Assembly: GCA_947462175.1 (NCBI GenBank)
Contig: CANHOE010000001.1
Location: forward strand, 1 to 60,193
Direction: 5' to 3'
Source of the DNA: Burkholderiales bacterium
Lineage (GTDB): Bacteria; Pseudomonadota; Gammaproteobacteria; Burkholderiales; Burkholderiaceae_C
DNA length: 60,193 nucleotides
Positions 10,055-47,535 of this stretch are shown in pieces (position 1 is the stretch's first letter; the number at the start of each line of letters is the position of its first letter). Below the pieces are notes generated by a model. It made no database searches. It was not told the DNA's origin and saw nothing but the letters and a program-made list of their open reading frames with translations. Both the position numbers and the translations under genes were made by a program.

Positions 10055-11263
10055 ATGCGTCTGTTGAACGTCATCCGTTCCGTCGATCCTGTGCATGGCG
10101 GCCCGGCGGAAGGGCTGCGGCAGTCGATCACCGCGACCCGCGCCATGGGCCACATCGAATCTGTGCTGACGTTGGATGCACCTGGCGATGCCTGTGTGAC
10201 CGCCTTTCCAGCAACGGTGCACGCACTCGGGCCGGCGGGCTCGAACTATGGGCGCGGAGATCGGCTGCTGCCCTGGTTGCGCGACCATGCTGGCGATTAC
10301 GACGCGGTGGTGGTGCATGGCCTTTGGCAGCACCATGGTCTGACGGTCTGGCGTGCGCTGCGCAACGGGCCGGTGCCGTATTTCGTCTATCCGCACGGCA
10401 TGCTCGACCCGTGGTTCAAGCAGCGCTATCCGTTGAAGCACTGGAAGAAGTCGCTCTACTGGTGGGCGGCCGAGTACAGAGTTCTGCGCGATGCTTCGGC
10501 TGTGCTTTTCACTGCAGACGAGGAGAGGCGACAGGCGGCACACACGTTCCGGCCGTATCGGGTGAGGCCCGCGGTTGTCGGGTACGGGGTGGCCGCCATC
10601 GGTGCCGATGCATCGGTCGATGCCCAGCTGTTCTTCGATCACTGGCCTGCGACCCGCGGCAAGCGCCTTGTGCTCTTCCTGGGCCGCCTTCACCCGAAGA
10701 AAGGTGGCGATCTGCTGATCGAGGCGTTCGCTCAGGTGGCTGCCCGCGATCCTTCGCTGCATCTGGTGATGGCAGGGCCCGACGACCGCTCGGGCGTGCG
10801 CTGCGAATGGGAGGCGCTGGCTTCGCGCTGCGGTATGTCAGATCGGGTCACGTTCACCGGCATGCTGACCGGCGACATCAAATGGGCTGCTCTGCGCGCT
10901 GCCAATGTGTTTGCGCTCCCATCGCATCAAGAGAATTTCGGCATTGCGGTGGTCGAGGCGCTCGCCTCAGGCTTGCCAGTGCTGATTTCCGACAAAGTCA
11001 ACATCTGGCGCGAGATCGTTGCCGATGATGCAGGGTTCGCAGGGAGCGACACAGTGGCTGGTACAGCGGAGACGCTTGACCGCTGGTTGAACCTCGAACC
11101 CTTGAGACTCACCGCCATGCGGCAGCACGCCCGCGATTGCTACCAGCGGCACTTCCACATGACGGCTACAGCGCAGCGATTGATCGACACGATCACGCCA
11201 CACCTGCGTCAGACCGCTGTCACACAGCACGCACCGGACACAAGACTCGATTCACAGCGCTGA
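10055..11263 (+). CDS. Glycosyltransferase, GT4 (GT-B, retaining) family
   Basis: ATG at 10055 is in frame with ORF 9989..11263 and lies 16 nt after the fhaB-like stop. It starts MRLLNVIRSVDPVHGGPAEG and carries the GT4 E-x7-E signature (SHQENFGIAVVEALASGLPVL). Confidence 0.8.
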   Translation: MRLLNVIRSVDPVHGGPAEGLRQSITATRAMGHIESVLTLDAPGDACVTAFPATVHALGPAGSNYGRGDRLLPWLRDHAGDYDAVVVHGLWQHHGLTVWRALRNGPVPYFVYPHGMLDPWFKQRYPLKHWKKSLYWWAAEYRVLRDASAVLFTADEERRQAAHTFRPYRVRPAVVGYGVAAIGADASVDAQLFFDHWPATRGKRLVLFLGRLHPKKGGDLLIEAFAQVAARDPSLHLVMAGPDDRSGVRCEWEALASRCGMSDRVTFTGMLTGDIKWAALRAANVFALPSHQENFGIAVVEALASGLPVLISDKVNIWREIVADDAGFAGSDTVAGTAETLDRWLNLEPLRLTAMRQHARDCYQRHFHMTATAQRLIDTITPHLRQTAVTQHAPDTRLDSQR

Positions 11264-11294
11264 AACAAACGCCGACTACGGTCGGAGTTTGTTT
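11263..11294 (+). terminator. Hairpin directly after the GT4 stop (AAACAAACGCCGAC-TACG-GTCGGAGTTTGTTT); candidate intrinsic terminator
   Basis: The stem is 14 bp with one mismatch and a 4-nt loop, and its 3' arm ends in TTTGTTT. It sits in the 57-nt gap before the next operon. Confidence 0.45.
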
Positions 11295-11320: not shown

Positions 11321-13069
11321 ATGAAAAAAATCGCAATGCTGGTCGTCATGCTGACGGGCCTGTTGATGGTGGGGCTGTCCCATGCCGCCTGGAACGCCGA
11401 ATGGAAGCAGCGCGTCAAGATTGGGCTGAACACGGCTGCTGACGGCCTGGCCATCACCTCAGCGGTCGATTCGCCTGCAGTGCTGATCCGGCTCCACACG
11501 GGCAATTTTCAATTCGTCGAAGCCAAGCCCGATGGCACCGACCTGCGTTTAATCGCCAGCGACGACAAGACGCCGCTGAAATACCACATCGAGAAGTTCG
11601 ATGGTCTGAATGAACTCGCGTTCATCTGGGTGCAGGTACCTAAGCTTGAGCCGGGTTCCAAGGACGCCTTCATCTGGCTCTATTACGGCAACCCCGTTGC
11701 GGCCGCAGGTGACGATGTCAATGGCAGTTATGACGCCGCGCAAGGGCTGATCTATCACTTCAACGAGCGCGAGGCGCTGCCACAGGATTCCACTGCGAAC
11801 GCGAACCACGCTCTGAGCTCGACTGCCAAGGCCATTGGCGCCGGTCTGATTGGCGGCGCGCTCTCGTTCGATGGCACTGCCGAATTGGCGCTGCCGTCGA
11901 CGCCTTCGCTGAAGGCCGGGGCCAACGGGCTGACGCTGTCGTTCTGGATCAAGCCGGTCGACACGGCCGACGTACCGGTCTACACGCAGACTGATGGCGC
12001 CGCACCGCTGTCGATCACGATGCGTGGCGGAAAGCTGGAGGCGCAATCAGGCACGCTGACCACCACCGCATCGGCACCGCTCGTTGCCGGCGCCTGGCAG
12101 CACGTCGCCATCGTCGTGAAAGACGGGCTGACGATTTATCTGAATGGGCAGGAGGTCGCCAAAGCTGCTGGCGCTGTGTCTGACATGAGCGGTGGCGCTG
12201 TCGTTGGCAAGGGCTTCAAGGGCGAGATTGACGAACTGCAGGTGTCGACCACGGCGCGCTCCGCCGATTGGATCAAGACCGCTGCGCAATCACAGGGTCA
12301 GGATCAGAAGCTGGTGGTCTATGGCCCGGCCGAAGGCGATGGTGAGGGTGACAGTGGCCCCTCTTACCTGAAGATCCTGCTCGGCGCGGTGACGATCGAT
12401 GGATGGGTGGTCATCGCCATCCTGGGCGTGATGTTCGTCGTGAGCTTCTGGGTGATGATCACCAAGTCCATGTTCGTGAACAGGGCGGCCAAGGACAACG
12501 AACGTTTCAAGGCGCAGTTCGAGAAGCTCGTGAATTCCATCCACCCCGGCACGCAGGACCCCGCCGTGGAGAAGGCCGAGAAGGAAACGGCCAGAGCCTA
12601 CCGGTATTCCTCGCTTTACCGCCTGTATGCCGCCGGCGCCCACGAGTTGCAGAAACGCTTTTCTGTCTACGCGGAGGAGGGTCGCACTCCGACGCTCACC
12701 GATCCCTCGCTCAATGCGATCCGCGCGACCATTGATGCACGGCTCGTGCGCGAACTGCAGCGCCTCAACGCCCAGATGGTGGTGCTCACCATCTCGATCG
12801 CCGGCGGCCCCTTTCTGGGCCTGCTTGGCACGGTGGTGGGCGTGATGATCACTTTTGCGGCCATTGCCGCGGCCGGTGACGTGAATGTGAATGCCATCGC
12901 ACCGGGCATCGCCGCAGCGCTGGTGGCCACCGTGGCTGGCCTGGCTGTCGCCATCCCCTGTCTCTTTGGCTACAACTACCTGCAGAGCAAGATCTCCGAG
13001 CTGACCTCGGACATGCAGGTGTTCGTCGACGAGTTCATCACTCGCATCGCCGAGAACCACTCGGTCTGA
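11321..13069 (+). CDS. DUF2341 + LamG (concanavalin-like) periplasmic domains fused to a MotA/TolQ/ExbB proton-channel domain
   Basis: Starts at ATG 11321 with an N-terminal signal/anchor (MKKIAMLVVMLTGLLMVGLSHA). A DUF2341-like block follows (WKQRVKIGLN...DLRLIASDDKTPLKYHIEKFD...AFIWVQVP...IWLYYGN). Next is a LamG-like block (GGALSFDG..LTLSFWIKP..AWQHVAIV..IYLNGQ..FKGEIDELQVS). The C-terminal part has three TM segments and the ExbB signature region (GGPFLGLLGTVVGVMITF...APGIAAALVATVAGLAVAIP). Confidence 0.85.
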   Translation: MKKIAMLVVMLTGLLMVGLSHAAWNAEWKQRVKIGLNTAADGLAITSAVDSPAVLIRLHTGNFQFVEAKPDGTDLRLIASDDKTPLKYHIEKFDGLNELAFIWVQVPKLEPGSKDAFIWLYYGNPVAAAGDDVNGSYDAAQGLIYHFNEREALPQDSTANANHALSSTAKAIGAGLIGGALSFDGTAELALPSTPSLKAGANGLTLSFWIKPVDTADVPVYTQTDGAAPLSITMRGGKLEAQSGTLTTTASAPLVAGAWQHVAIVVKDGLTIYLNGQEVAKAAGAVSDMSGGAVVGKGFKGEIDELQVSTTARSADWIKTAAQSQGQDQKLVVYGPAEGDGEGDSGPSYLKILLGAVTIDGWVVIAILGVMFVVSFWVMITKSMFVNRAAKDNERFKAQFEKLVNSIHPGTQDPAVEKAEKETARAYRYSSLYRLYAAGAHELQKRFSVYAEEGRTPTLTDPSLNAIRATIDARLVRELQRLNAQMVVLTISIAGGPFLGLLGTVVGVMITFAAIAAAGDVNVNAIAPGIAAALVATVAGLAVAIPCLFGYNYLQSKISELTSDMQVFVDEFITRIAENHSV

Positions 13070-13079
13070 GGTCCACGCC

Positions 13080-13484
13080 ATGAAGATGCAGGCCGCTGGC
13101 AAACCCTACGACGAGATCAATGTCGTGCCGATGCTCGACCTCAGCTACGTGCTGCTGGTGATCTTCATCATCATGACGACTGCTTCGGTTCAGGGCATCA
13201 AGGTCAATCTGCCGAAGGCCAGTGCCGCGCCGAGCCTGGCCAAGCCGCAGACCAAGGCCATCACCATTCGCGACGACGGTCAGATCTTCCTCGACACCTA
13301 CCCGGTGAGCATGCAGGAGCTGGAGGACCGCCTTCGTCAGCTGAAGGCGGTGAATCCCAGCTTTCCGGTGGTCATCAAGGGAGACGCAAAAGTTCACTAC
13401 GAAAAGGTCGTCGATGTACTCGACCTCATGGGGCGGCTCGACATTACCCAACTCGGCCTGGTCACCCAGCGCCTGGTGAAGTAG
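13080..13484 (+). CDS. exbD: ExbD/TolR-family biopolymer transport protein
   Basis: The product is 134 aa and starts 10 nt after the upstream stop. It has a single N-terminal TM (INVVPMLDLSYVLLVIFII) followed by a typical ExbD periplasmic domain (ITIRDDGQIFLD...VVIKGDAKVHYEKVVDVLDLM). Confidence 0.85.
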   Translation: MKMQAAGKPYDEINVVPMLDLSYVLLVIFIIMTTASVQGIKVNLPKASAAPSLAKPQTKAITIRDDGQIFLDTYPVSMQELEDRLRQLKAVNPSFPVVIKGDAKVHYEKVVDVLDLMGRLDITQLGLVTQRLVK

Positions 13485-13511
13485 CGGGCCGCGGCGCTCG
13501 GGCGACCGGCA

Positions 13512-14192
13512 ATGGACGTATACAACGACGATGCCGAGCCCCGCCGCTCCTGGCTCAAGACGGCCGCGCTCGTTTTGGTGGCGCTGGCCCTGCTGGCCGG
13601 CGCGACTCTGGTGTTGATGAAGTTCCTGTCGGGGCCATCAGCGAAGCCGTCCGGCATACGCCAGATCGCTTTGATCAAGCAGCCGCCGCCACCGCCGCCG
13701 CCCAAGCCCCCAGAGAAGCCGCCTGAGCCGCCCAAGGTGAAGGAGGAAGTCAAGATCGATCAGCCCAAGGACGAGCCCAAGCCCGACGAGCCGAAGGCGG
13801 CGGACGAGAAACCTGCATCGGACAAGCCGCTCGGTGTTGATGCAGAAGGCGGCGCCGGCTCCGACGGTTTCGGGCTGGCTGGCAACAAGGGTGGTCGGGA
13901 TTTCCTTACCTCCGGCGGTGGAGGTGGCGCGTACTACTCGGGCTTGCTGCAGCGGCAGTTCTTCGAAGCCTTGTCGCGCAACCGCAAGGTGCTGAAGGAA
14001 GAGTTCAAGGTGGTCGTCAAGATCTGGCTCGGCGATGACGGGCGAGTGCAGAAGGCCGACATCGTCAGTGGCTCCGGCAACCCCAAGGTCGATGACCTGA
14101 TCCAGTTGACTCTGCTCGACATGACCCCGCTCAAGGACATCCCGCCCAGCTCAATGCGCCCGATGCAACTCCGCCTGAGCAACCGCTCGTGA
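13512..14192 (+). CDS. TonB-like energy transducer
   Basis: The architecture is an N-terminal TM (AALVLVALALLAGATLVLM), a Pro/Lys/Glu-rich rod (PPPPPPPKPPEKPPEPPKVKEE..KDEPKPDEPK), a Gly-rich linker and a TonB_C-like end (FKVVVKIWLGDDGRVQKADIVSGSGNPKVDDLIQLTLLD). Confidence 0.7.
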   Translation: MDVYNDDAEPRRSWLKTAALVLVALALLAGATLVLMKFLSGPSAKPSGIRQIALIKQPPPPPPPKPPEKPPEPPKVKEEVKIDQPKDEPKPDEPKAADEKPASDKPLGVDAEGGAGSDGFGLAGNKGGRDFLTSGGGGGAYYSGLLQRQFFEALSRNRKVLKEEFKVVVKIWLGDDGRVQKADIVSGSGNPKVDDLIQLTLLDMTPLKDIPPSSMRPMQLRLSNRS

Positions 14193-14218
14193 CCGTCTAC
14201 CGCTGTTTCCGACTTCGC

Positions 14219-15787
14219 ATGAACTTCACCATATCTCGCTGGTCTGTCTCGCTCGCATCGCTGATATGGGCCACTGCGCCTGTGTGCGCCCAGGAAGTCG
14301 ACATCGACCAGGTGCGTGCCGCCACCGCCAAATTGATCGCTCAACTGGTCGACCAGGGTGTGCTGGCGCGCGACAAGGGTGAAGCGCTGATGAGCGATTT
14401 CGCCAAGCCAGCAGCAGCACCATCAGCTTCCGGCAATGCCGGCTCGGCTGTGGGCGGCGCCGCGACGGAAGCAGGTGCCAAGGGTGCGGCCGGCACGGTG
14501 CGCGTGCCGTATATCCCGGAGTTCGTGCGCAAGGAATTGAAAGACGAGATTCGCCTCGAACTGGCCGCACAGGCGTTCCGCGAAGGCTGGACCGGACCGG
14601 GCTCGGTGCCGGCCTGGGTGCGTGGCCTGGCCTGGGACGGCGACCTGCGTTTTCGCGTGCAACTCGACCGCTTTGGCAGTGCCAATGCGCCACAGATCAG
14701 CATCACCGACACCAACCGCACCCGCGCGCTCTCGCTGGCGAACACGGCTGAAGACCGCGAACGGTTTCGATTTCGTGCCCGCATCGGCCTGACTGCGAAG
14801 ATCGACGAGAACTGGTCGGGCGGTGTGCGGCTGACCACCGGCAGCGCGACCGATCCGCTGTCGTCGAACCAGACGCTGGGCACCTACAACAACCGGTACA
14901 CCGTGCTGATCGACCGGGCGTACATCCGCTACCGCCTGGGTGACTACAGCGCCGTGGCCGGGCGCATGGCCAACCCCTGGTTTGGCACCGACCTGATGTG
15001 GGCCAACGACCTGAGCTTCGACGGCGTGGCCCTGCAATGGACGCCGACGATCACTTCCGACATTCGAGGTTTCGCCACGCTGGCGGCCCTGCCGATCCAG
15101 GAAGTGGAGCTGGCCTCGGCCGACAAGTGGTTGTTCGGAGGCCAGATCGGCGCCACGCTCCTGCCATCGCCGCGGACCGTGGGTGCCAAGCTGGGCCTGG
15201 CCTATTTCCACTACGCCAGCCTGCGGGGCAAGATAAGCCCGGCTGGCTCGACGGTGAACGAGTTCACAGCGCCGGCGTTTGCCCAGAAGGGCAACACGTA
15301 CTACAACATCTCGTCCGATCCGACCCGGCCATTGCTCGGCCTGGCCGCGGACTACCAGCTGCTGAACCTGACCGGGCAGGCCGACCTTCCGTCGATCGCC
15401 GGCAAGCGGATCATCGTGACCGGCGACTACGTCCGTAACTTCGGCTTCGATCGGGCAGCAGTGAGCCAGCGCGTCGGTACCAACGTCGACCCGCAGGTCA
15501 GTGCCTACCACCTGCGGGTGGCATTTGGCGACGCAGAGATCAAGGCACTGCATGACTGGCAGGTGTTCGCGGCCTACAAGCGTGTCGAGCGCGATGCCCT
15601 GCTCGACGCGTTCACCGACAGCGATTTCCGCCTCGGCGGCACGGATGCGCGTGGCTACATCCTCAGCGGCAGCTACGGCCTGGGCAAGAACACCTCGGCG
15701 GCATTTCGCTACTTCAGCGGCGATTCGATTTCGGGCGCACCGTTGTCGATCGACGTGTTCCAGTTCGACCTGAACGTGAAGTTCTGA
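14219..15787 (+). CDS. Porin-like outer-membrane beta-barrel protein with a long N-terminal helical/low-complexity extension
   Basis: ATG at 14219 gives a signal peptide (MNFTISRWSVSLASLIWATAPVCA/QE). A GTG at 14189 overlaps the tonB-like stop as an alternative start. About 100 aa of helical plus Ala/Gly-rich linker precede an amphipathic beta-strand-rich region. The protein ends in the OMP-type terminal Phe (FDLNVKF). Confidence 0.6.
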   Translation: MNFTISRWSVSLASLIWATAPVCAQEVDIDQVRAATAKLIAQLVDQGVLARDKGEALMSDFAKPAAAPSASGNAGSAVGGAATEAGAKGAAGTVRVPYIPEFVRKELKDEIRLELAAQAFREGWTGPGSVPAWVRGLAWDGDLRFRVQLDRFGSANAPQISITDTNRTRALSLANTAEDRERFRFRARIGLTAKIDENWSGGVRLTTGSATDPLSSNQTLGTYNNRYTVLIDRAYIRYRLGDYSAVAGRMANPWFGTDLMWANDLSFDGVALQWTPTITSDIRGFATLAALPIQEVELASADKWLFGGQIGATLLPSPRTVGAKLGLAYFHYASLRGKISPAGSTVNEFTAPAFAQKGNTYYNISSDPTRPLLGLAADYQLLNLTGQADLPSIAGKRIIVTGDYVRNFGFDRAAVSQRVGTNVDPQVSAYHLRVAFGDAEIKALHDWQVFAAYKRVERDALLDAFTDSDFRLGGTDARGYILSGSYGLGKNTSAAFRYFSGDSISGAPLSIDVFQFDLNVKF

Positions 15788-15800
15788 GCGTGTACGGACC

Positions 15801-16475
15801 ATGAACGTGACGCGCCCGATCCTGCTTGGCCTGCTGGCCTTGGTCCTGTCTGTCAGCGCGTCGGCGCAGACCGCCGACAAGGCGACCCGCCGCCTTCAAC
15901 TTCAGCTTCAGAACTTGCAGCAACAGCTGCAGGAGGCGCAGTCTGCCAAGGCCAAGGTCGAGGCCGACAAGGCCGAAGTCGACAAGAAGTTGCTCGAGCA
16001 GACCGAGCAGGTCACGAAGCTGACCGCTGATCTGCGCAAGGCAGGCGGCAACTTCAAGTCTTCGGAGGCCACGCGCGCGCAACTGGCAGCCAATGTCTCG
16101 GCGCTCGATAAACAGCTGGCCGATGAGAAGCGCAGCAGCGAGGAAGCGGCCGCCCTGAAGGCACGTGAACTGGTGGCCTACACCCGGCTGCGCGACGAGC
16201 AGCAGGCGACGCTCCAGCGCAAGCATGACGACCAGGTCACGCAGGTCACCGAGTGCACGTCGAAGAACACGAAGCTGATCCGCCTCAGCGGTGAGCTGCT
16301 CGATCGTTACCGCGGCAAAACGGTCAAGGACGTGCTGACGCAGCGTGAGCCGATGCTGGGGCTCGGCGACGTGCAGATGTTCAACCTCGTCCAGGAATAC
16401 CGCGACCGCGGCGATGCCGAGCGCTTCACCCCATCCACCCCGCCGGCGCCCGCCGCCCCTTCCGTCAACAGGTGA
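15801..16475 (+). CDS. Secreted coiled-coil protein, function unknown
   Basis: It has a signal peptide (MNVTRPILLGLLALVLSVSASA/QT) followed by about 150 aa of heptad-like Q/E/K/L-rich sequence (LQLQLQNLQQQLQEAQSAKAKVEADKAEVDKKLLEQTEQ). The tail is Pro-rich. Confidence 0.6.
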   Translation: MNVTRPILLGLLALVLSVSASAQTADKATRRLQLQLQNLQQQLQEAQSAKAKVEADKAEVDKKLLEQTEQVTKLTADLRKAGGNFKSSEATRAQLAANVSALDKQLADEKRSSEEAAALKARELVAYTRLRDEQQATLQRKHDDQVTQVTECTSKNTKLIRLSGELLDRYRGKTVKDVLTQREPMLGLGDVQMFNLVQEYRDRGDAERFTPSTPPAPAAPSVNR

Positions 16476-16486
16476 AACCAAACGAA

Positions 16487-17188
16487 ATGACTCCCTCGTG
16501 CGCACTGAAGTTCGTCCCGCGTTCGATCCCTCTCGGCGTGATCTCCGCGACGCTCAGCCTCAGCCTGCTCGCCTCCTGCTCCAGCCTGCCGTCGCTGCCG
16601 ATTCCGTTTGTCGATAACGCGCCAGCGGCGCCGATCGTCTCCGGTAGCGCCTCTGCGAAATGGGGTCAACAGGTGGACCTGTCCGGCGGTGTCGTTATCA
16701 CTGACCCGGCCTATGTGATCGGGCCTGAAGACGCGCTGGACATTTCGGTATGGAAAGACGAGACGTTGAAATCCGCGGCGCTGGTGCGCCCCGATGGGGG
16801 CATCTCGTTTCCGCTGGCGGGCGACTTCATCGTCGCCGGCAAGACCGCCTCGCAGGTGCGCGACGAGCTGGTCAAGCGCCTTGAGAAATTCATTCCCGAG
16901 CCTGTGGTCACGGTGTCGGTGGTGCGCGTGGCCAGTTACCGCATCTATGTGATCGGCCGTGTCAACAAGCCCGGCGATATCCAGACCGGCCGCAACATCG
17001 ATGTGTTGCAGGCACTCAGCATCGCCGGCGGCATGACACCGTTCGCGTCGGAAGATGACATCCGGATCATTCGCAAGGTCCAAGGCAAGACCGTATCAAT
17101 ACCGTTCGAGTATTCCCGCATCCGCAAAGGCGGGGACCTGTCGCAGAACATCACGCTGAAAAGCGGAGACGTGCTGCTGGTGCCGTGA
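16487..17188 (+). CDS. Polysaccharide export protein, Wza/Poly_export + SLBB type lipoprotein (PEP-CTERM locus type)
   Basis: It has a lipobox (LSLSLLASC) and a Poly_export-like core (YVIGPEDALDISVW...PDGGISFPLAGDFIVAGKT..QVRDEL). An SLBB-like end follows (YVIGRVNKPGDIQ...DVLQALSIAGG). An alternative GTG at 16472 overlaps the upstream stop (GTGA). Confidence 0.8.
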   Translation: MTPSCALKFVPRSIPLGVISATLSLSLLASCSSLPSLPIPFVDNAPAAPIVSGSASAKWGQQVDLSGGVVITDPAYVIGPEDALDISVWKDETLKSAALVRPDGGISFPLAGDFIVAGKTASQVRDELVKRLEKFIPEPVVTVSVVRVASYRIYVIGRVNKPGDIQTGRNIDVLQALSIAGGMTPFASEDDIRIIRKVQGKTVSIPFEYSRIRKGGDLSQNITLKSGDVLLVP

Positions 17189-18459
17189 ACGCTGGTGGCT
17201 GTGATCGAGTCCCTGAGGCGTCCCGTTGTGGCGTGCTGCTTTGCAGCGTGGTGCTCGCGTGGCTCGGCTCGCCGCTCCCGGCGCTTGCAGAGAGTTATTC
17301 GATCGAGAGCAGCTCCAACGTCAGCGTCGAAGCGAATGACAACCTCAACTTGCAACCCCATTCGGCGGGAACCGTGAAGACACTTGCCTTGTCGACCACC
17401 GTCGGCGCATCGCGCCGGGCCGAGAACTCGGCCACGCTGCTGGGCGCGACTGTGACTGCCCTGCAGCAGTGGGGTCGCGGAGGCAACGACCGCCTCGACG
17501 GCAGTGTCGGTCTGACTCAGTCGTTCAAAGACGCGTTGAACACCTTGACCGCGTCGGGGCGATACGCCCAGGACTTCAACAACACGGTGCAAAACGCCGA
17601 CGTGACGGTCAGCCCGGGCCAGCGTCGCACGACCAGCGTGTCGGTGGGCTGGGGCCGTGCCCTGACTGAGCGGCTCAGCGCCAACACCCAGGTGAGCACC
17701 TCGCAAACCAGCTACGGCCAGCAGAGCTCAGCCGCTGTTGCCAGCAGCAACAGTTTCCGCAACACGTCGGTGTCTGCCGGACTGTCGTATGCGGTCACCG
17801 AGATCGATACCGTGTCGGTGCAGACCAGCCATTCCGACTATCGCAGCGCTGCCGCTGACACCAGCTCGTCGACCAATGAGATCAGTGTCAGCGCATCCCG
17901 CGTGCTGGGCGAGCGCAGCAGCGCGTCGCTTCAATTGGGCGTCTATCAGACCGACAGCAACTCGCCGAGGATTCGTTTCGCCTGTCCGACAGCACCCGTG
18001 CTGTGCGCGATCGGTCTGGTGCCGCTGATCCAGATTCGCGACCAGGCCAAGACGTCCGGCACCGGCCTGAGCTACGGCGCGAGTTACCGCTATCAGCTCG
18101 GACAGACATCGTCGTTTTCGCTCTCCTTGGGCAGCCAACAGTCCCCCAGTGGTGCGGAGGGCGTGGTGCAGAACAAGTCGCTGAGTTTGAGCCTGGGTCA
18201 CAGCTTTTCCGAAACGCTCAATGGGGCGATGAGCTTTGCCATGTCTCGATCCACGTCTCAGGTCACTGTGTTGAACCAGCGGTCGCAACGCAAGACGGTG
18301 GCCCTGTCGCTGTCCAAGCAGCTGTCGCGAGATTTCAGTCTGCAATCGAACTACCAATGGACCGAAGGCAACAGCGGCGGCGGTGGTGATGCAGCACAGT
18401 CGAACAGCATCGGCGTGGCGCTGAAGTACGACTGGCCCACCTTCCAGGCCTCGCGTTGA
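17185..18459 (+). CDS. Putative outer-membrane beta-barrel protein of the kind linked to PEP-CTERM/EPS loci
   Basis: The GTG start overlaps the wza-like stop (GTGA). It has a signal-like N-terminus ending PLPALA/ES. The rest is Ser/Thr/Asn/Gln-rich with alternating-hydrophobic strand patterns throughout (SVSAGLSYAVTE, LSLSLGHSFSE, ALSLSKQLSRDFSLQSNYQW). Confidence 0.5.
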   Translation: MNAGGCDRVPEASRCGVLLCSVVLAWLGSPLPALAESYSIESSSNVSVEANDNLNLQPHSAGTVKTLALSTTVGASRRAENSATLLGATVTALQQWGRGGNDRLDGSVGLTQSFKDALNTLTASGRYAQDFNNTVQNADVTVSPGQRRTTSVSVGWGRALTERLSANTQVSTSQTSYGQQSSAAVASSNSFRNTSVSAGLSYAVTEIDTVSVQTSHSDYRSAAADTSSSTNEISVSASRVLGERSSASLQLGVYQTDSNSPRIRFACPTAPVLCAIGLVPLIQIRDQAKTSGTGLSYGASYRYQLGQTSSFSLSLGSQQSPSGAEGVVQNKSLSLSLGHSFSETLNGAMSFAMSRSTSQVTVLNQRSQRKTVALSLSKQLSRDFSLQSNYQWTEGNSGGGGDAAQSNSIGVALKYDWPTFQASR

Positions 18460-18467
18460 GGAACACC

Positions 18468-20264
18468 ATGTCAGCGATTGCACAAGACATTTATCCAGGC
18501 GCCGACGCTGGACTGGACACCGGCAAGACCCTTGGCGACTACCTGGGCATCCTGAGGCGCCGCCGCGCCCTGATCGGCCTGGTGTTTGCTTTGCTGTTCA
18601 TCGTCGCGGCGGTCGTGGCGGTGTCGCTGCCGCCGGTGTATCGGTCGACCGCCACCATCCTGATCAAGGAGCAGGAGATTCCGCAGGAGTTCGTGCGCTC
18701 CACCGTCACCAGCTTCGCCGACGAACGCATCCAGGTCATCAGTCAGCAGGTGATGACGCGGACCACCCTGCTCGACCTGGTCGACAAGTACGGGCTCTAC
18801 GGCAGCGCGCGGCAGAAGGAGACCAGCGAGGAAATCCTCGACCGCATGCGGCGCGACATCAAGCTCACGCCGATCAGCGCCGAAGTCACCGATCGGCGTA
18901 GCGGCTCGCCTGTGAAATCGACAATCGCCTTCAGCCTCTCCTATGACAGCGAGGTGGCCGCCAACGCCCAGAAGATCGCCAACGAACTCACCACCCTGTA
19001 TCTGAACGAGAACGTCAAGAATCGGCAGCAGAAAGCCGCTGAGACCACGCTTTTCCTCGACGAGGAACTGGCGCGCGTCACCGAACACATCTCAGAGAGC
19101 GAACAGAAGCTCGCTGCCTTCAAGGCGCGCAACCAGGGTCGAACGCCCGACCTGAGCCTTTCCAATCAGATGGGCAGTGAGCGTGTCAATGCCGAGGTCC
19201 AGCGAATCGAGCGGGAGATCACCTTCCTTGAGGAACGAAAGTTGGCATTGCAGGGGCAACTGGCCGACACCAAGCCCTCCACGCCTGTCCTTGGCAATGG
19301 CGGCATCATCCTCGAACCCGAAGACCGACTCAAGGCATTGCAGTTGCAGCTGACCGGCCTGACCGGCATCTACAGCGACGACCACCCTGACGTGAAGCGC
19401 CTGCGTCGCGAGATCGCGATCCTGAAGGTCGAGACCGGCCTGCAGGACGACGCCACCGACCGCGAGAACAAGCTGCTGCAGCTGCAGCAGCAGATCTCGC
19501 TGCTGCGCCAGAAGTACTCCGATGACCATCCCGACGTCGTGCAGTTGAAGCGCGCGTTCGCCACACTCGACAAGGCGGTGCGCACCGGTGCCGATGCGCC
19601 CGAAGGCCGGGCCAGCGAGATCCGGCGAGCGCGCAAACCCGACAACCCGGTGTACCTGAACCTGAAATCGCAGATCGAAACCACCACTGCGCAGATTGAG
19701 TCCCTGCGCAGCGAACGCCAGGAAATGCGCGGCAAGCTCGAACTGCTGGATCTGCGGGTCAGTCAATCGCCGGAGGTCGAGCGCGAGTACCTGGAACTGG
19801 CGCGCGACCTCGACAGCTCGCGGGGCCGCTTTCGCGAGTTGCGAGACAAGCAGATGCAGGCGCAGGTGGCCGAACAGCTTGAGCGCGGTCGCAAAGCCGA
19901 GCGTTTCACCCTGATCGAGCCGCCGATTTTTCCTGAGAAGCCGTTCCGTCCTAACCGCAGCCTGATCCTGATGATGGGCGTGATGCTCGCGCTGGCAGGC
20001 GGCATTGGTGCTGCCGCGCTGCGCGAGACGATCGATCAGACGGTGCACAGCGCCCGTGATGTGATTCGGGTGATGCAGGTGCCGATGCTCGCGGTGCTGC
20101 CCGCGCTGCCCAGCCCGGTGCTGTTGCGGCGTCGCTCGCGCCTGCGTTGGATCGTCGCCACCTGTGCGCTGGTGCTGATCGGAGTGGGGCTGATGGGGTT
20201 CCACAACTTCGTGATGCCGCTCGACGTCGCCTGGTACGGCCTGTTGCGGCGGCTCACCCAATGA
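18468..20264 (+). CDS. Polysaccharide chain-length determinant (Wzz/GumC/PCP family, PEP-CTERM locus type)
   Basis: GAGGA lies 5 nt upstream of ATG 18468. It has a Wzz N-terminal motif plus TM (LGDYLGILRRRRALIGLVFALLFIVAAVVAVSLPPVYRSTATILI), a long periplasmic coiled-coil region and a C-terminal TM. Confidence 0.85.
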   Translation: MSAIAQDIYPGADAGLDTGKTLGDYLGILRRRRALIGLVFALLFIVAAVVAVSLPPVYRSTATILIKEQEIPQEFVRSTVTSFADERIQVISQQVMTRTTLLDLVDKYGLYGSARQKETSEEILDRMRRDIKLTPISAEVTDRRSGSPVKSTIAFSLSYDSEVAANAQKIANELTTLYLNENVKNRQQKAAETTLFLDEELARVTEHISESEQKLAAFKARNQGRTPDLSLSNQMGSERVNAEVQRIEREITFLEERKLALQGQLADTKPSTPVLGNGGIILEPEDRLKALQLQLTGLTGIYSDDHPDVKRLRREIAILKVETGLQDDATDRENKLLQLQQQISLLRQKYSDDHPDVVQLKRAFATLDKAVRTGADAPEGRASEIRRARKPDNPVYLNLKSQIETTTAQIESLRSERQEMRGKLELLDLRVSQSPEVEREYLELARDLDSSRGRFRELRDKQMQAQVAEQLERGRKAERFTLIEPPIFPEKPFRPNRSLILMMGVMLALAGGIGAAALRETIDQTVHSARDVIRVMQVPMLAVLPALPSPVLLRRRSRLRWIVATCALVLIGVGLMGFHNFVMPLDVAWYGLLRRLTQ

Positions 20265-21166
20265 AGGTGCCGATGAAATTCCCGAATGAAGTCACCCCCG
20301 ATGCGAGCGAGTCCGGTGCGGTCTACGGCGCCAAGGTGCAGGTGGTCAAGGCGCTGTCCGCCGCGACCGAGACGGAGCCGCGCAGCGAGTCGCTGCACAT
20401 TGAGTATTCGACGACACAGGTCATGGCCGATGCGCTGGTGCGGCTCCAACGCACGCATGGCGTCGTCAAACTGGACCGCTCGGTGCTGTCTGAGTCGTTC
20501 AAGATGCTGCGCAATCAGGTGCTGCAGCGCCTGCGTGCCGATGGCCACAAGCTGTTGGCAGTCACGAGCCCCAGGCGAATCGAGGGCAAGTCGCTGACCG
20601 CCGTCAACCTGGCGCTGACCATCGCTGCCGACTACGACTCGGCGGTGCTGCTGGTCGATGCCGATCTAGGCGGCGGCGGCCTTCAATCGATGTTCGGCCT
20701 CGACGGTGCGCGTGGTTTGAGCGACCACCTGATGCATGCGGCACCGATCTCCGAACTGCTGGTCAACCCCGGTCTCGCGCGCTTCGTGTTGTTGCCAGCC
20801 GGGCAGCAGGCCGTGCTGAATTCGGCCGAGCTGTTGGCAACCAAGCTGGCGCAGCAGTTGATCTCAGAGATGAAGCACCGCTACGCTGATCGCTACATCA
20901 TTGTTGACCTGCCACCGCTGCTCGACACCGCCGATGCGCTGGCGTTCCTTCCACAGGTCGACACCACGCTGGTGGTGGTGGAGGAGCACACCACCTCGAT
21001 TCAGGACATCGAGCGCATGGCCGAGCTGCTGGCGCCGTTCAACCTGATAGGCACCGTCATGAGCCAGGCGCGGCAGACCGAGAAGGGCGTTCGGTCAGGT
21101 ACCGACAAGGCACGCAAGGCGCCGTGGTACCGGCGAGTGATTTCGGGTGCTCGATCGGGCTACTGA
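20261..21166 (+). CDS. BY-kinase-like P-loop ATPase (EPS/PEP-CTERM locus tyrosine-autokinase family)
   Basis: An ATGA overlap joins it to the upstream gene. It carries Walker A (SPRRIEGKS), Walker A' (VLLVDADLGGGG) and Walker B (YIIVDLPPLL). Confidence 0.8.
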   Translation: MKVPMKFPNEVTPDASESGAVYGAKVQVVKALSAATETEPRSESLHIEYSTTQVMADALVRLQRTHGVVKLDRSVLSESFKMLRNQVLQRLRADGHKLLAVTSPRRIEGKSLTAVNLALTIAADYDSAVLLVDADLGGGGLQSMFGLDGARGLSDHLMHAAPISELLVNPGLARFVLLPAGQQAVLNSAELLATKLAQQLISEMKHRYADRYIIVDLPPLLDTADALAFLPQVDTTLVVVEEHTTSIQDIERMAELLAPFNLIGTVMSQARQTEKGVRSGTDKARKAPWYRRVISGARSGY

Positions 21167-21323: not shown

Positions 21324-21902
21324 ATGAATGCCTTCTTGCGTCCCTTTAGTTTGGCCGCAGCATTGAGCTGCTCTGGGTTGGCGCATGCCGACTTCGTCGG
21401 CTCCTTGGGATTGATCACGCCGCCCGCTACTGTCGCGTTCAGCAATTCGGTGGTGTCAACTGGGTTCACAAGTACCGTGGGCCCGATCACCTACAACTTT
21501 CTCGACACCTGGACCTTCACGCTGGCTTCTGATGCCCAGTTGGGAAGCATCACCACGACGTTCGATTTCGGCGCCGGCCCAGGCGGCCCCACCTTCGGTA
21601 TTTCGAACCTTCAGGTCAGGCTCAGCACGAATCCGATTTCAGGCTCGCCGCTTGTGTCGTGGCTCACCGTGAACCCGGCTGGCCCGGGCTTCACCTCTTC
21701 GGTGGCACTGATTCCAGTCTCGCCGTTGCTCGCTGGCAACTACAGGCTGGATATCCGCGGAACGCTTGCTTCACCGGGGTCATACGGCGGCACGGTGATA
21801 GCCAACGCTGTCCCATTGCCTGCGGCGTTGCCGCTGTTTCTGGTCGGCCTGGGGGCGCTTGGTATCAAGGGCGCCCGCAAGCGAGCTGCGGTGGCAGCAT
21901 GA
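21324..21902 (+). CDS. Small secreted PEP-CTERM-domain protein
   Basis: GGAG lies 7 nt upstream of the ATG. It has a signal peptide (..ALSCSGLAHA/DF). The C-terminal VPLPAALPLFLVGLGALGIKGARKR has the tripartite PEP-CTERM architecture of motif, TM helix and Arg/Lys cluster. Confidence 0.8.
   Translation: MNAFLRPFSLAAALSCSGLAHADFVGSLGLITPPATVAFSNSVVSTGFTSTVGPITYNFLDTWTFTLASDAQLGSITTTFDFGAGPGGPTFGISNLQVRLSTNPISGSPLVSWLTVNPAGPGFTSSVALIPVSPLLAGNYRLDIRGTLASPGSYGGTVIANAVPLPAALPLFLVGLGALGIKGARKRAAVAA
21810..21899 (+). other. PEP-CTERM sorting signal (VPLPAA variant + TM + KGARKR)
   Basis: This is the last 30 codons of the 192-aa ORF. Confidence 0.75.
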
Positions 21903-30120: not shown

Positions 30121-30749
30121 CGACGCTTGCGAGCGACCATCAGCATGCTTTTCCACAGCCACCGGAATCGACCGACACCAGAGAAGCTGACGATGTCAAA
30201 GCCGCTTTCCCGAAGCAGGTCCGCCAGTGTGCCGCGGCTGAAAAACTTGATATGACCACCGTGCCACAGCGCTGTGTGATGCTTGTCCCAGTGGCCTGTC
30301 AATGCCAGTGCCAGATTTTTCAGGTACCCGTGGTAAGGCGTCGTGACGATCAGGTATCCCCCCTCTTTCAGAACCGCCCGTGCGAACTGCGGTAGCTTGT
30401 GAGGGGCATAGAGGTGTTCAATGACTTCTGTTGAGATAACGACATCGAACGAGCGCTCCTTTTGCAGAAGCAAAGCGGGATCGTCCTCGACCGAGTGGCG
30501 ATGAAATGGAACCGATGGATGCGTCGCACGGGCGATTTCTACCCCTTGGGCGTCATGTTCGACTCCAACGACATCGAATCCCGCCGTCGACAAATCCCCG
30601 CACATGCCACCATTGCCCGCGCCAAGATCAAGCACGCGCGTGGCCCCCAGATCACGCAGGCGACGGATGATCGCGGGGCTGATGTATCCGGATGAATGCG
30701 GCGGTGTTGCGCTTGACCAGCCGTAGCTTGTGACACTGTTGTCTGTCAT
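30117..30749 (-). CDS. Class I SAM-dependent methyltransferase
   Basis: It carries motif I (VLDLGAGNGGMCG). ATGA overlaps occur at both ends, at 30746-30749 and 30117-30120. Confidence 0.8.
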   Translation of the reverse strand: MTDNSVTSYGWSSATPPHSSGYISPAIIRRLRDLGATRVLDLGAGNGGMCGDLSTAGFDVVGVEHDAQGVEIARATHPSVPFHRHSVEDDPALLLQKERSFDVVISTEVIEHLYAPHKLPQFARAVLKEGGYLIVTTPYHGYLKNLALALTGHWDKHHTALWHGGHIKFFSRGTLADLLRESGFDIVSFSGVGRFRWLWKSMLMVARKRR

Positions 30750-47365: not shown

Positions 47366-47535
47366 AAGCGCTCTGAGCAGCAAGTTGTGTGCGCCGATGC
47401 GCCAGAAGATGGGATTCGGAAGTCGTGTGCAGCCACCCCTTTAAGTTAACTGCGGCATGTGACAGGCACATCACAGCCTGCGGGCATCCAGCGTGACCTT
47501 ACGGCTGTCACAAAAGAATCCTAGTGTTCGTGCCC

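Follow-up and report, generated by a model that had tools for sequence, protein, structure and literature searches.

A conserved Tol/Ton-type gene cassette linked to a two-partner secretion pair, a candidate energized accessory of a giant type Vb adhesin, adjoins polysaccharide export genes in a betaproteobacterium

Precedents for Tol/Ton-type motors that power export or surface adhesins include Agl-Glt and Oar/PopC, and Ton-type genes share a locus with a two-partner secretion (TPS) pair in Haemophilus, where hxuCBA encodes a TpsA protein (HxuA), a TpsB protein (HxuB), and a TonB-dependent receptor (HxuC). The tol operon has the order tolQ-tolR-tolA-(outer membrane [OM] partner)-cpoB. During export of the known TpsA proteins FhaB and CdiA, the C-terminal end stays in the periplasm until the rest has left. 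To our knowledge, TPS systems described so far are regarded as energy independent at the OM, and none has a dedicated Tol/Ton-type motor; nor do we know of a Tol/Ton cassette or TPS pair described in XrtA/PEP-CTERM exopolysaccharide (EPS) loci, or of a requirement for a proton motive force (PMF) transducer in Wza-type exporters. In Myxococcus, the Agl-Glt system joins a TolQR-like PMF motor and transducers with domains like the TonB C-terminus (GltG and GltJ) to OM beta-barrels that are not TonB-dependent transporters (TBDTs; GltA, GltB, and GltH) and to a surface adhesin, forming a single assembly that transmits force (PMC11761067). The locus described here likewise combines a PMF motor, a TonB-like transducer, a non-TBDT barrel, and a surface adhesin. 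It differs in that homology to Agl-Glt is confined to the motor and TonB-like domains, the components are far fewer, the adhesin is a TPS-secreted giant beta-helix and not a lipoprotein, and no motility phenotype is known for the bacteria that carry it.

The window (the whole stretch of DNA analyzed, 60,193 nucleotides) contained nine same-strand open reading frames (ORFs) between positions 11321 and 21166, where an earlier note on this DNA had claimed ten genes. These ORFs, numbered g1 to g9, and one element within g4 were as follows.

11321 to 13069, plus strand: g1, signal peptide, periplasmic DUF2341 and LamG, and TolQ/ExbB-type proton channel subunit
13080 to 13484, plus strand: g2, TolR/ExbD-like stator axle
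13512 to 14192, plus strand: g3, TonB/TolA-like transducer built of a transmembrane (TM) segment at the N-terminus, a rod rich in Pro and Lys, and a C-terminal domain of TonB_2 type
14189 to 15787 (probable ATG at 14219), plus strand: g4, plug-less Porin_5 OM barrel
14495 to 14527, plus strand: TVRVPYIPEFV element of g4, conserved in the family and followed by a helix
15801 to 16475, plus strand: g5, secreted protein of 224 aa with a coiled coil and a signal peptide
16472 to 17188, plus strand: g6, Wza-like polysaccharide export lipoprotein with Poly_export and SLBB domains and the lipobox LLASC
17185 to 18459, plus strand: g7, putative OM beta-barrel of the PEP-CTERM-locus type
18456 to 20264, plus strand: g8, polysaccharide co-polymerase (PCP; Wzz and GNVR)
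20261 to 21166 (ORF open from 20147), plus strand: g9, BY-kinase-like (tyrosine-autokinase-type) P-loop ATPase

All junctions were ≤27 nt or overlapping, within the limit of 30 nt reported earlier, and the overlaps described in the earlier note were all found (GTGA at 14189, 16472, and 17185; TTGA at 18456, with an ATG at 18468; and ATGA at 20261, where the ATG of g9 overlaps the stop codon of g8), as was the 157-nt spacer between 21166 and the next gene at 21324. Translation of g4, g6, and g8 may instead begin further downstream, at the ATG codons of 14219, 16487, and 18468, respectively, in which case the overlaps would become short gaps. No intergenic terminator-like site dividing positions 11321 to 21166 was found. 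The string nevertheless consists of two modules, a cassette (g1 to g5) and a set of EPS export genes (g6 to g9), and the earlier observation that a motor is joined to EPS export genes in the window holds, with a stop/start overlap at 16472.

The functional unit extends further upstream and includes a giant ORF, which was absent from the earlier account, and a glycosyltransferase gene.

1 to 10038, plus strand: 3' part of a giant TpsA-type gene of the filamentous hemagglutinin family, >3,345 codons
9955 to 9996, plus strand: TpsA C-terminal strand motif KPTILTVEVLGFGD, candidate Ton/Tol-box-like periplasmic handle
10055 to 11263 (ORF opens at 9989, probable ATG at 10055), plus strand: GT4 glycosyltransferase between TpsA and the cassette
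11263 to 11294, no strand assigned: inverted repeat/hairpin (AAACAAACGCCGAC-TAC-GGTCGGAGTTTGTTT) between the GT4 gene and g1, terminator-like on both strands

The giant ORF is open at the window start (frame 1, no stop in nt 1 to 60), and the TpsA N-terminus and TpsB are missing from the window because both lie beyond its edge. Homologs of its first 600 aa carry the TPS domain (PF05860), and a DUF3739 domain was predicted near its C-terminus (nt 9460 to 9825; Pfam, 96 bits); no recognizable catalytic or binding domain was found in it beyond beta-helix repeats and DUF3739. The GT4 gene (Pfam Glycos_transf_1, 105.9 bits) occupied this position in close Sphaerotilaceae-like loci only (cluster 7, 21 loci). 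The hairpin is present where the earlier note had placed it, but the unit continues upstream past it, to the GT4 gene and the giant ORF. The hairpin does part these two genes from the cassette, and cotranscription of the cassette with TpsA is therefore not assured here.

Gene content was compared across 160 related loci in two samples, one betaproteobacterial (sample 1) and one divergent and metagenomic (sample 2), comprising the best 80 of 569 and the best 80 of 568 confirmed relatives, respectively. Among loci with enough sequence, the ExbD-like gene was present in 72/74 (sample 1) and 64/65 (sample 2), the TonB-like gene in 72/72 and 51/51, the Porin_5 gene in 65/65 and 33/34, and the coiled-coil gene in 61/61 and 28/28. 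Genes g1 to g5 are thus an invariant cassette, with each downstream gene in 97 to 100% of such loci. The most conserved neighbor of the cassette was the giant TpsA gene (65/81 loci by clustering); a giant FHA-like gene ended ≤3 kb upstream in 59/69 loci of sample 1 (HMM), and in sample 2 TpsB immediately preceded the fusion gene (45/45 loci). The TPS genes were found in three orders: TpsB-TpsA-(GT4)-cassette, with TpsB upstream of the TPS-domain N-terminus in L081, L163, and L164; TpsA-Wza-SLT-TpsB-cassette (L086, L087, L095, and L118); and TpsB-cassette-TpsA, in which a giant TPS-domain ORF begins right after the coiled-coil gene. The third order, in which TpsA is not upstream, was seen in 13 loci, L079 and 12 of sample 2 (L104, L122, L131, L133 to L135, L138, L142, L146, L155, L159, and L162). 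No TpsA was found within 10 kb on either side in four loci of sample 1 (L034, L035, L042, and L061). The constant partner of the cassette is the TPS pair, to which it remains linked through all three orders.

Linkage to EPS and exosortase genes, expected from the earlier note, was observed in part of the survey: Wza and PCP genes lay ≤10 kb downstream of the cassette in 22/55 betaproteobacterial loci and in 0/23 divergent loci. The cassette occurred without a detectable Wza, PCP, BY-kinase, or BBP2 gene in that interval in 25/55 and 20/23 loci, respectively. In L004, where the fusion protein shares 85% identity with g1, the cassette is present and Wza and PCP are lacking; more distant members (L040, L071, and L073) have both. 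Exosortase or PEP-CTERM genes were found nearby in L035, L065, L081, and L146. Genes for Wza, PCP, BBP2 OM proteins, EpsD-like PPIases, CAAX proteases, and exosortases were found repeatedly around the cassette, in several arrangements unrelated to each other, and a polysaccharide-related role is therefore possible.

Other recurrent neighbors fit an adhesin. Genes encoding LapD-like (LapD_MoxY_N-HAMP-GGDEF-EAL) and LapG-like (Peptidase_C93) proteins adjoined the cassette in L042, L043, L048, and L061, DsbC and PPIase genes recurred, and TPR-GT41 genes were found in L065, L066, and L163; GT41 is the family of HMW1C, a TpsA glycosyltransferase. The LapD- and LapG-like genes, which recall the LapA/LapE system, suggest regulated release of a tethered giant adhesin via a periplasmic cleavage site. 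Unlike the type Vb substrate here, LapA is a type I secretion substrate held by its N-terminus in a TolC-like pore, and neither lapD- nor lapG-like genes occur in the window. The giant protein resembles FhaB/FhaC of Bordetella and CdiA/CdiB in the N-terminal TPS domain of its homologs, in its beta-helical build, and in its cognate ShlB/POTRA_2 TpsB, and its conserved C-terminal region could stay periplasmic, as the topology of those proteins would allow. It differs in ending in DUF3739 and a short strand box and not in an FhaB prodomain or a CdiA toxin. That box follows the pattern [KR]P[ST][FI][LI][TS]V[ED]V[LIV]G[FL]G, which was kept in all aligned family members and took the forms PSIITVEVVGYE and ASIFIVEVIGYGG in the divergent metagenome sample. 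On sequence grounds, KPTILTVEVLGFGD is a candidate Ton/Tol box.

Domain identities assigned to the string in the earlier note were borne out by Pfam and NCBIfam profile searches. The g1 protein exceeded the Pfam cut-offs for DUF2341 (55.9 bits), Laminin_G_3 (57.4 bits), and MotA_ExbB (97.6 bits). Its best NCBIfam and PDB match was TolQ, with a score far below the equivalog cut-off (122.8 versus 221), and the helical part of its AF2 model, which was of moderate confidence (pLDDT, 68), matched TolQ structures with TM values of 0.74 to 0.79. The fusion has >3,700 homologs. Its channel motifs of TolQ/ExbB type, GLLGTVVGVMITF and ALVATVAGLAVAIP, were invariant. LamG and DUF2341 of g1 are lectin-like folds. 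The g2 protein matched Pfam ExbD at 100 bits, scored below cut-off for TolR (96.5 bits; equivalog cut-off, 127.3) and ExbD_2 (71.8 bits), and kept the transmembrane Asp (PMLDLSYVLL). Judged by the invariant channel motifs, the retained Asp, and the modeled TolQ fold, the g1-g2 motor looks functional. The g3 protein matched TonB_2 at 23 bits (cut-off, 22), as did 24/26 of its homologs, so that the TonB/TolA-type C-terminal domain holds across the family. Its score against the NCBIfam TonB C-terminal model was below cut-off (21.1 versus 27.1), a GltJ model matched at 18.9 bits only, within the Pro-rich region, and the best PDB profile match was HasB (0.0036), followed by TonB and TolA.

With Tol-Pal (TolQ-TolR-TolA-TolB-Pal-CpoB), the cassette shares a 5:2-type stator with its transmembrane Asp and channel motifs, a TM-anchored rod that is rich in Pro and Lys and ends in a domain of TonB_2/TolA type, and a parallel gene order in which a secreted coiled-coil protein comes last, like CpoB. 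It differs in lacking TolB and Pal, in having a Porin_5 barrel as OM partner, in the N-terminal periplasmic DUF2341-LamG extension of its TolQ-like subunit, in its TolQ and TolR scores (122.8 and 96.5), and in its linkage to a TPS pair, not to cell-division/envelope genes. With ExbB-ExbD-TonB systems, including HasB-HasR, it shares a PMF-driven motor, a TonB-type C-terminal domain closest to HasB, and strand motifs that are candidate Ton boxes, and hxuCBA offers a precedent for linkage of Ton-type genes to a TPS pair. It differs from these in its plug-less barrel, in the subthreshold TonB score of g3, and in the absence of a plug-containing 22-strand TBDT: no Plug or TonB-dependent-receptor family matches were found among the window proteins scanned and no TBDT among 10 large unassigned neighbors in related loci. 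The earlier observation of a dedicated Tol/Ton-type motor without a classical TBDT, paired with a plug-less porin-like OM protein and a coiled-coil protein, was thus confirmed.

The OM partner g4 (Pfam Porin_5, 501 bits) has a helical domain in the periplasm at its N-terminus, followed by a linker, the TVRVPYIPEFV element, a helix, and the barrel. Its AF2 model (moderate confidence; pLDDT, 71.9) has approximately 16 to 18 strands, as read from DSSP output, and no plug. The top Foldseek match was the attachment porin OmpM1 (E value, 4.5e-15), followed by OprB, AlgE, DcaP, and OmpF-type porins; as modeled, g4 looks like attachment-type porins with periplasmic extensions (OmpM1 and DcaP). VRVPYIPE is a second candidate periplasmic Ton/Tol box. 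This motif and that of TpsA could instead serve TpsB recognition, folding, or another role. The coiled-coil protein g5 matched no Pfam family and gave only weak SMC-type coiled-coil matches.

It is moderately probable that g1 to g5 encode a PMF-driven, envelope-spanning accessory of the Tol/Ton class (5:2 motor) that serves the giant type Vb adhesin. A TolQ-like pentamer would bear five periplasmic DUF2341-LamG lectin-like heads and, with a TolR-like dimer, would use proton flux to exert force on the TonB/TolA-like rod, whose C-terminal domain would capture the TpsA box KPTILTVEVLGFGD, the VRVPYIPE element of Porin_5, or both by strand addition; the TpsA box would be within reach because the FhaB and CdiA C-termini leave the periplasm last. 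The module may then hold the surface fiber in place, put it under tension, finish its export, or set it free, with Porin_5 and the coiled-coil protein as an OM and periplasmic scaffold. We infer all physical interactions within the cassette and with TpsA, as well as the direction of work. In this Rubrivivax/Rhizobacter-like betaproteobacterium, the cassette has also been spliced before XrtD-type EPS genes (Wza, OM protein, PCP, and BY-kinase), and fiber, motor, and polysaccharide exporter are probably coexpressed as a single island for a biofilm or floc matrix. On this reading of g1 to g5, the cassette would be an undescribed energized accessory of type Vb secretion. The earlier view of an undescribed system stands, as no account of the cassette was found in the searchable literature, where DUF2341-ExbB fusions are listed merely as uncharacterized.

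Other functions would account for some of these observations. If TpsA were a secreted capture or lytic protein, the Ton-like motor could power uptake of its harvest through Porin_5; the hxuCBA-like sharing of one locus by TPS and Ton-type genes, the match of g3 to HasB (a TonB paralog dedicated to one receptor), and the similarity of Porin_5 to the substrate-specific porins OprB, chitoporin, and OprO are consistent with import. Import is nonetheless very unlikely, since Porin_5 has neither a plug domain nor a TBDT fold, the neighborhoods tested lacked a TBDT, TpsA has no recognizable catalytic or binding domain except beta-helix repeats and DUF3739, and the neighbors are of the adhesin/matrix type (LapD/LapG, glycosyltransferases, and EPS export). 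A Tol-Pal paralog (with g5 as a CpoB-like coiled coil) that tethers and stabilizes the OM where fiber and polysaccharide cross, leaving TpsA untouched, would be in keeping with g1 and g2 scoring better as TolQ and TolR than as ExbB and ExbD, with the tol-like gene order, and with OmpM1 as the top structural match of Porin_5. Against it stands the strictly conserved TpsA C-terminal box, whose presence covaries with that of the cassette in all arrangements observed; TolB and Pal homologs are absent, g1 and g2 fall far under the TolQ and TolR equivalog cut-offs, and this alternative appears improbable.

The earlier note had proposed that the motor acts on Wza, the Porin_5 barrel, or both to export, gate, or attach EPS or PEP-CTERM proteins (here of VPLPA type), as an export-side Ton system. 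Several observations agree with this proposal, including the 4-nt overlap of g5 and g6 within a string undivided by terminator-like sites, the Wza and PCP genes that follow the cassette in 22/55 betaproteobacterial loci and in L040, L071, and L073, the Wza-like and SLT genes between TpsA and TpsB in the second gene order, the exosortase/PEP-CTERM genes near four loci, the presence of AlgE-type exporters among the structural neighbors of Porin_5, and the lectin-like LamG and DUF2341, which could bind glycan. Against it, export genes were not detected within 10 kb downstream in 25/55 and 20/23 loci, L004 among these, the TPS pair stays as partner through three gene orders, and PMF transducers are not a known requirement of Wza-type exporters. 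We consider a primary role as an accessory of Wza or PEP-CTERM export unlikely, and the TPS-linked reading, with the giant adhesin as client, is preferred; g6 to g9 are a lineage-specific EPS module.

Within that module, g8 exceeded the TIGR03007 cut-off (284.5 versus 278.85), while g6 (TIGR03027, 144 versus 180) and g9 (TIGR03018, 162.7 versus 230.65; ParA and AAA_31 also matched) were below theirs, and g7 matched TIGR03016 weakly (34 bits versus 90.85) and clustered with BBP2_2-type OM proteins from other loci. Three further genes lie downstream.

21324 to 21902, plus strand: FxDxF-family exosortase cargo protein (NF038126, 61.7 versus a cut-off of 50)
22200 to 24596, minus strand: PrsT-like TPR protein (TIGR02917, 298.6, just under the cut-off of 312.2)
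24620 to 26224, minus strand: exosortase XrtD with a fused EpsI domain (TIGR04152, 555 versus a cut-off of 400)

The region resembles XrtA/PEP-CTERM EPS loci (Haft 2006 type) in its PCP, Wza-like lipoprotein, barrel OM protein, BY-kinase, PrsT-like TPR protein, exosortase with EpsI, many glycosyltransferases, and sorted cargo. It differs in that most components, including the Wza, OM protein, BY-kinase, and PrsT-like genes, fall under the XrtA-system equivalog cut-offs. Exosortase A was rejected as the identity of the exosortase, which scored 189 against the XrtA model (cut-off, 208) and 133 against EpsI, whereas the XrtD model was exceeded. The exosortase-A locus claimed earlier is accordingly an XrtD locus, and the cargo C-terminus (VPLPAALPLFLVGLGALGIKGARKR), with VPLPA, a transmembrane segment, and KGARKR, is a VPLPA-CTERM signal.

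Nine ORFs were counted on the forward strand between positions 11321 and 21166, where ten genes had been claimed in the earlier note. The third-position GC content of these ORFs was high (0.78 to 0.85), and the junctions between them were 10, 27, -4 (+26 with the g4 ATG at 14219), and 13 nt from g1 to g5 and -4 (or +11), -4, -4 (or +8), and -4 nt from g5 to g9. The inverted repeat at 11263 to 11294 and the 157-nt spacer after 21166 were present as previously described, and each of the domain calls for g1 to g9 was confirmed by the Pfam and NCBIfam run that had been proposed as a check. The organism belongs to the Burkholderiales and is Rubrivivax/Rhizobacter-like; among the matches listed, the closest to g1 came from a Rubrivivax MAG (92% identity).

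Domain assignments of the nine forward-strand genes at 11321 to 21166
g1, DUF2341-LamG-TolQ/ExbB fusion: DUF2341, Laminin_G_3, and MotA_ExbB (Pfam)
g2, ExbD/TolR-like: ExbD (Pfam)
g3, TonB/TolA-like: TonB_2, marginal in the window sequence (Pfam)
g4, porin: Porin_5, 501 bits (Pfam)
g5, coiled-coil protein: signal peptide and coiled coil, family-less (Pfam/NCBIfam)
g6, export protein: Poly_export and SLBB, with a lipobox (Pfam)
g7, outer membrane protein: PEP-CTERM-locus OMP, weak match (NCBIfam)
g8, PCP: Wzz and GNVR, with TIGR03007 above cut-off
g9, ATPase: tyrosine-autokinase type

The hairpin at 11263 to 11294, between a GT4 gene and g1, is terminator-like. A known riboswitch or leader at this position was ruled out by the Rfam scan of the whole window (1 to 60193), in which no family reached the gathering score. 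The scan for sigma-70-like promoters from 9.5 to 22.5 kb gave no match, a result that is uninformative in DNA of 64% GC.

Conservation was scored in two samples of related loci collected around homologues of the fusion gene. Sample 1 was betaproteobacterial and comprised 80 loci, with one genome per species, the best 80 of at least 569 confirmed relatives in a collection of 185,579 representative species genomes. Sample 2 comprised the best 80 of at least 568 confirmed relatives found in JGI metagenomes with a divergent, Methylosinus-type query. Both samples consist of best matches, and the deepest branches lie outside them. HMMs built from clustered locus proteins were searched on six-frame ORFs, replacing plain tblastn, which undercounted distant Wza and PCP genes; presence was expressed relative to loci with enough sequence beyond the fusion gene. 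In such loci, g1 to g5 constitute an invariant cassette.

Presence of cassette genes in loci with enough sequence beyond the fusion gene
ExbD-like: 72/74 in sample 1, 64/65 in sample 2
TonB-like: 72/72 in sample 1, 51/51 in sample 2
Porin_5: 65/65 in sample 1, 33/34 in sample 2
Coiled-coil: 61/61 in sample 1, 28/28 in sample 2

The polysaccharide (EPS) export genes g6 to g9 are outside the conserved unit. Wza and PCP genes were found within 10 kb downstream in 22/55 loci of sample 1 and 0/23 of sample 2, and one locus (L004), with a fusion protein 85% identical, carried the cassette without them. What had been described as a "hard-wired" ten-gene operon thus represents two modules that are joined specifically in this lineage.

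The most conserved neighbor of the cassette was the giant ORF at 1 to 10038 (65/81 loci, based on clustering). The frame of this ORF continues past the window edge, and the protein is therefore longer than 3,345 aa. The sole Pfam match of this ORF was DUF3739, "filamentous haemagglutinin family outer membrane protein." The N-terminus itself falls beyond the window edge, and the PF05860 TPS (haemagg_act) domain, characteristic of the secreted partner (TpsA) in two-partner secretion (TPS), was present in 10/16 homologues of the first 600 aa. The TPS HMM also matched giant ORFs of related loci, and in L081 a TPS-domain ORF is followed directly by the DUF3739 ORF. The window starts within the giant ORF and so contains neither the region upstream of it nor a gene for the partner transporter, TpsB. 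TpsB was found in the related loci L076, L079, and L081 and, upstream of the TPS N-terminus, in L163 and L164. Gene order in Thiobacillus sp. SCN 63-57 was TpsB (POTRA_2 and ShlB), TPS-domain ORF, DUF3739 ORF (3,001 aa), and fusion gene. In 59/69 loci of sample 1, the giant gene ended no more than 3 kb before the fusion gene. The sample 2 loci with enough upstream sequence all had TpsB directly before the fusion gene (45/45), within either a TpsA-Wza-SLT-TpsB-cassette arrangement or a TpsB-cassette-TpsA arrangement, in which TpsA directly followed the coiled-coil gene. TpsB, TpsA, and the cassette were thus kept together through three gene orders, which is the strongest kind of neighborhood evidence for a functional unit, and functional coupling of the cassette to the TPS pair is very likely. 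The earlier note had drawn the upstream limit at the hairpin, so that TpsA, the main partner, was left out. As regards its secretion domain, the TPS pair is of the usual type Vb kind.

The product of g1 contains a signal peptide, two beta-sandwich domains (DUF2341 and LamG), and a TolQ-type bundle of three transmembrane segments, and the TolQ/ExbB topology places DUF2341 and LamG in the periplasm. The AF2 model of g1, of moderate confidence, matched TolQ cryo-EM chains with TM values of 0.74 to 0.79. The channel motifs were invariant, MotA_ExbB was matched at 97.6 bits (cut-off, 22.9), and the model has the TolQ/ExbB fold. Scores of g1 were 122.8 bits for the TolQ equivalog TIGR02796 (cut-off, 221) and 60 to 65 bits for the ExbB equivalogs (cut-offs, 135 to 206), and g2 scored 96.5 bits for the TolR equivalog TIGR02801 (cut-off, 127.3). 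Both genes matched TolQ/TolR better than ExbB/ExbD, yet far under the equivalog cut-offs. The Pfam ExbD score of g2 was 100 bits, with the essential transmembrane Asp kept in PMLDLSYVLL. The g3 protein runs from a transmembrane segment, in which no His was seen, through a rod rich in Pro and Lys to the C-terminal domain. TonB_2 was matched by g3 at 23 bits (cut-off, 22) and by 24/26 family members, and TIGR01352 scored 21.1 bits, under its cut-off of 27.1. The g3 family profile compared with the PDB gave HasB at 0.0036 and TonB and TolA at >0.1; PDB sequence searches with g3 or g4 alone returned nothing significant.

The AF2 model of g4 (pLDDT 71.9, moderate) consists of N-terminal helices, a low-complexity linker, a conserved element, and a plug-less barrel of ~16 to 18 strands (counted from DSSP output). 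The conserved strand-plus-helix element begins TVRVPYIPEFVRKEL, and the VRVPYIPE element of g4 was shared by the window and even the most divergent loci. The top structural match was the outer membrane attachment porin OmpM1, followed by OprB, AlgE, DcaP, and OmpF-type porins. Pfam matches to Plug or TonB_dep_Rec were found neither among the scanned window proteins nor in 10 large unassigned neighbors in related loci. With no TonB-dependent receptor (TBDT) found and the Porin_5 model plug-less, a classical TBDT partner was rejected, and the earlier observation that no plug-plus-22-strand TBDT could be seen was borne out in these scans.

In all TpsA partners, the last part of the protein is a strand motif under strong conservation, preceded by a linker that is Ala-rich or variable. 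The motif is KPTILTVEVLGFGD in the window (nt 9955 to 9996) and PSFLTVEVIGFG, PSIITVEVVGYE, or ASIFIVEVIGYGG in the divergent sample. The Ton boxes of TBDTs and the N-terminus of TolB are short alternating-hydrophobic strands that are captured by TonB/TolA domains, and the C-termini of FhaB and CdiA stay periplasmic during or after secretion. By analogy with these cases, the TpsA box is a plausible candidate handle for g3.

It is reasonably probable that g1 to g5 encode a PMF-driven transducer of the Tol/Ton class that is dedicated to the giant TPS-secreted, FHA-like fiber, mode of action included; far less confidence attaches to any single mechanistic step. The transducer would most likely engage TpsA at its C-terminal box in the periplasm, Porin_5 at its N-terminal element, or both, and the TpsA fiber would be anchored, put under tension, exported to completion, or released by the cassette. 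In this lineage, the cassette is predicted to be coexpressed with the XrtD-type EPS export genes. More tentatively, the loci may represent an unrecognized class of energized type Vb secretion, in which a 5:2 motor would act through the TonB/TolA-like rod on the TpsA box and/or Porin_5, with the PMF finishing export of the fiber or tensioning, moving, or releasing it.

An export-side Ton system serving EPS, as the earlier note had proposed, would fit the operon fusion in the window and the recurrence of EPS neighbors, but these neighbors are not constant. The cassette was also likened to a Ton system, from which it differs in having no TBDT; an hxuCBA-like import system is a rival reading. Another rival, a Tol-Pal paralogue acting only in envelope stabilization, draws on the likeness of the cassette to Tol-Pal. 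The cassette differs from Tol-Pal in its scores under equivalog cut-offs and in the absence of TolB and Pal families, none of which were found among g1 to g9 or their neighbors, the outer membrane partner being Porin_5. The Agl-Glt machinery combines a TolQR-like motor, TonB-like transducers, non-TBDT barrels, and an adhesin (PMC11761067). The resemblance of the cassette to it is architectural only, as the sole match to Agl-Glt components (GltA to GltK and CglB) was in the Pro-rich region of g3 (GltJ model, 18.9 bits; cut-off, 450). We rate the cassette as a transducer of the Tol/Ton type that serves a new client.

A 2025 survey described DUF2341 as an uncharacterized appendage of the ExbB-like A subunits of "generic ion transporters" (PMC12505986). 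Literature searches found no functional account of DUF2341, nothing relevant on DUF3739 or PF16930, and no description of the cassette in work pairing FHA/TPS with ExbB/TolQ/TonB. We know of no TPS system with a dedicated motor, and two-partner secretion is the textbook example of "energy-free" transport across the outer membrane. If the cassette is a PMF transducer dedicated to the TPS pair, this energy-free picture would be revised for a large family, and outer membrane protein secretion and adhesion would be PMF controlled in many environmental proteobacteria. DUF2341-LamG "generic ion transporter" A subunits would gain a first function, and the Tol/Ton/Mot motors would gain a client beside nutrient import, envelope constriction, gliding, and T9SS. 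A testable function would also be provided for DUF2341, Porin_5, and DUF3739, all of which are orphan Pfam entries. The cassette would also offer a genetic handle on how the surface matrix is built and controlled in sheath-, floc-, and stalk-forming Betaproteobacteria; Rubrivivax, Leptothrix, Thiobacillus, Sulfuriferula, and Gallionellaceae are among the relatives.

Other neighbors in the related loci fit a surface-fiber or matrix role. Genes for LapG-like (Peptidase_C93) and LapD-like (LapD_MoxY_N-HAMP-GGDEF-EAL) proteins adjoin the cassette in L042, L043, L048, and L061 (e.g., L061:480-3198). An ankyrin-repeat protein of ~265 aa is encoded between the Porin_5 and coiled-coil genes in 9 loci based on clustering (L040, L042, L048, L052, L058, L061, L064, L065, and L077; e.g., L042:14388-15185) and in 10 based on HMMs; this insertion marks a single subclade of the cassette. 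DsbC, SurA/EpsD-like PPIases, CAAX proteases, and SLT plus T2SS E/F genes were also recurrent. TPR plus Glyco_transf_41 proteins were found beside TpsA or TpsB (L065:7191-9716, L066, and L163:391-2670), and in the window's clade the GT4 gene (10055 to 11263) occupies the equivalent position, between TpsA and the cassette. The GT41 family contains HMW1C, by which a TpsA adhesin is glycosylated.

Several further features of these loci were observed. The TpsA C-terminus of L048 contains SAAG just upstream of the conserved box, which could be a LapG-type cleavage site. In six loci (L038, L039, L041, L050, L069, and L072), the coiled-coil gene is followed by an SLT transglycosylase, T2SS-F, and a T2SS-E/MshE-type ATPase, with three small ORFs completing the recurrent set, which resembles a module of pilus or secretion type. 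In betaproteobacterial loci, a conserved gene pair that adjoins TpsB and precedes the start of TpsA (L081:5831-8131, L163:3544-6048, and L164:4920-7200) may represent further system components just outside the window; the gene of ~255 to 270 aa had a weak PEP-CTERM match in L081, and that of ~474 to 516 aa had a weak PBP_like_2 match in L163 and L164, with none recorded for L081.

Downstream of the gene string, the following features were annotated.

21324 to 21902, forward: small secreted cargo protein ending VPLPAALPLFLVGLGALGIKGARKR, a VPLPA-CTERM signal
24620 to 26224, reverse: exosortase, XrtD fused to EpsI, 3.5 kb downstream
27691 to 30162, reverse: 823-aa protein with FlgD_ig and NHL-repeat matches only and no NCBIfam family
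42974 to 44080, reverse: GDP-mannose 4,6-dehydratase type
47524 to 48738, forward: GDP-mannose 4,6-dehydratase type
48807 to 51074, reverse: 755-aa protein with one weak PATR (autotransporter passenger repeat) match

Assignment of the exosortase to type A was rejected, as the XrtD model TIGR04152 was passed (555; cut-off, 400) and the XrtA model TIGR03109 was missed (189.1; cut-off, 208). Together with the VPLPA-CTERM cargo, XrtD-EpsI therefore defines the locus as an XrtD system. Despite this, the PCP passed the XrtA-system model TIGR03007 (284.5; cut-off, 278.85); the remaining XrtA-set models were under cut-off (Wza, 144.3/180; OMP, 34.3/90.85; tyrosine autokinase, 162.7/230.65). The fusion of the cassette with the XrtD EPS export genes in the window suggests that fiber and polysaccharide are deployed together.

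The 823-aa gene sits within a glycosyltransferase-rich EPS island, and the 755-aa PATR-matching product may be a surface protein. The two GDP-mannose 4,6-dehydratase-type genes, on opposite strands and <5 kb apart, suggest a deoxyhexose of the fucose or rhamnose type in the polysaccharide.
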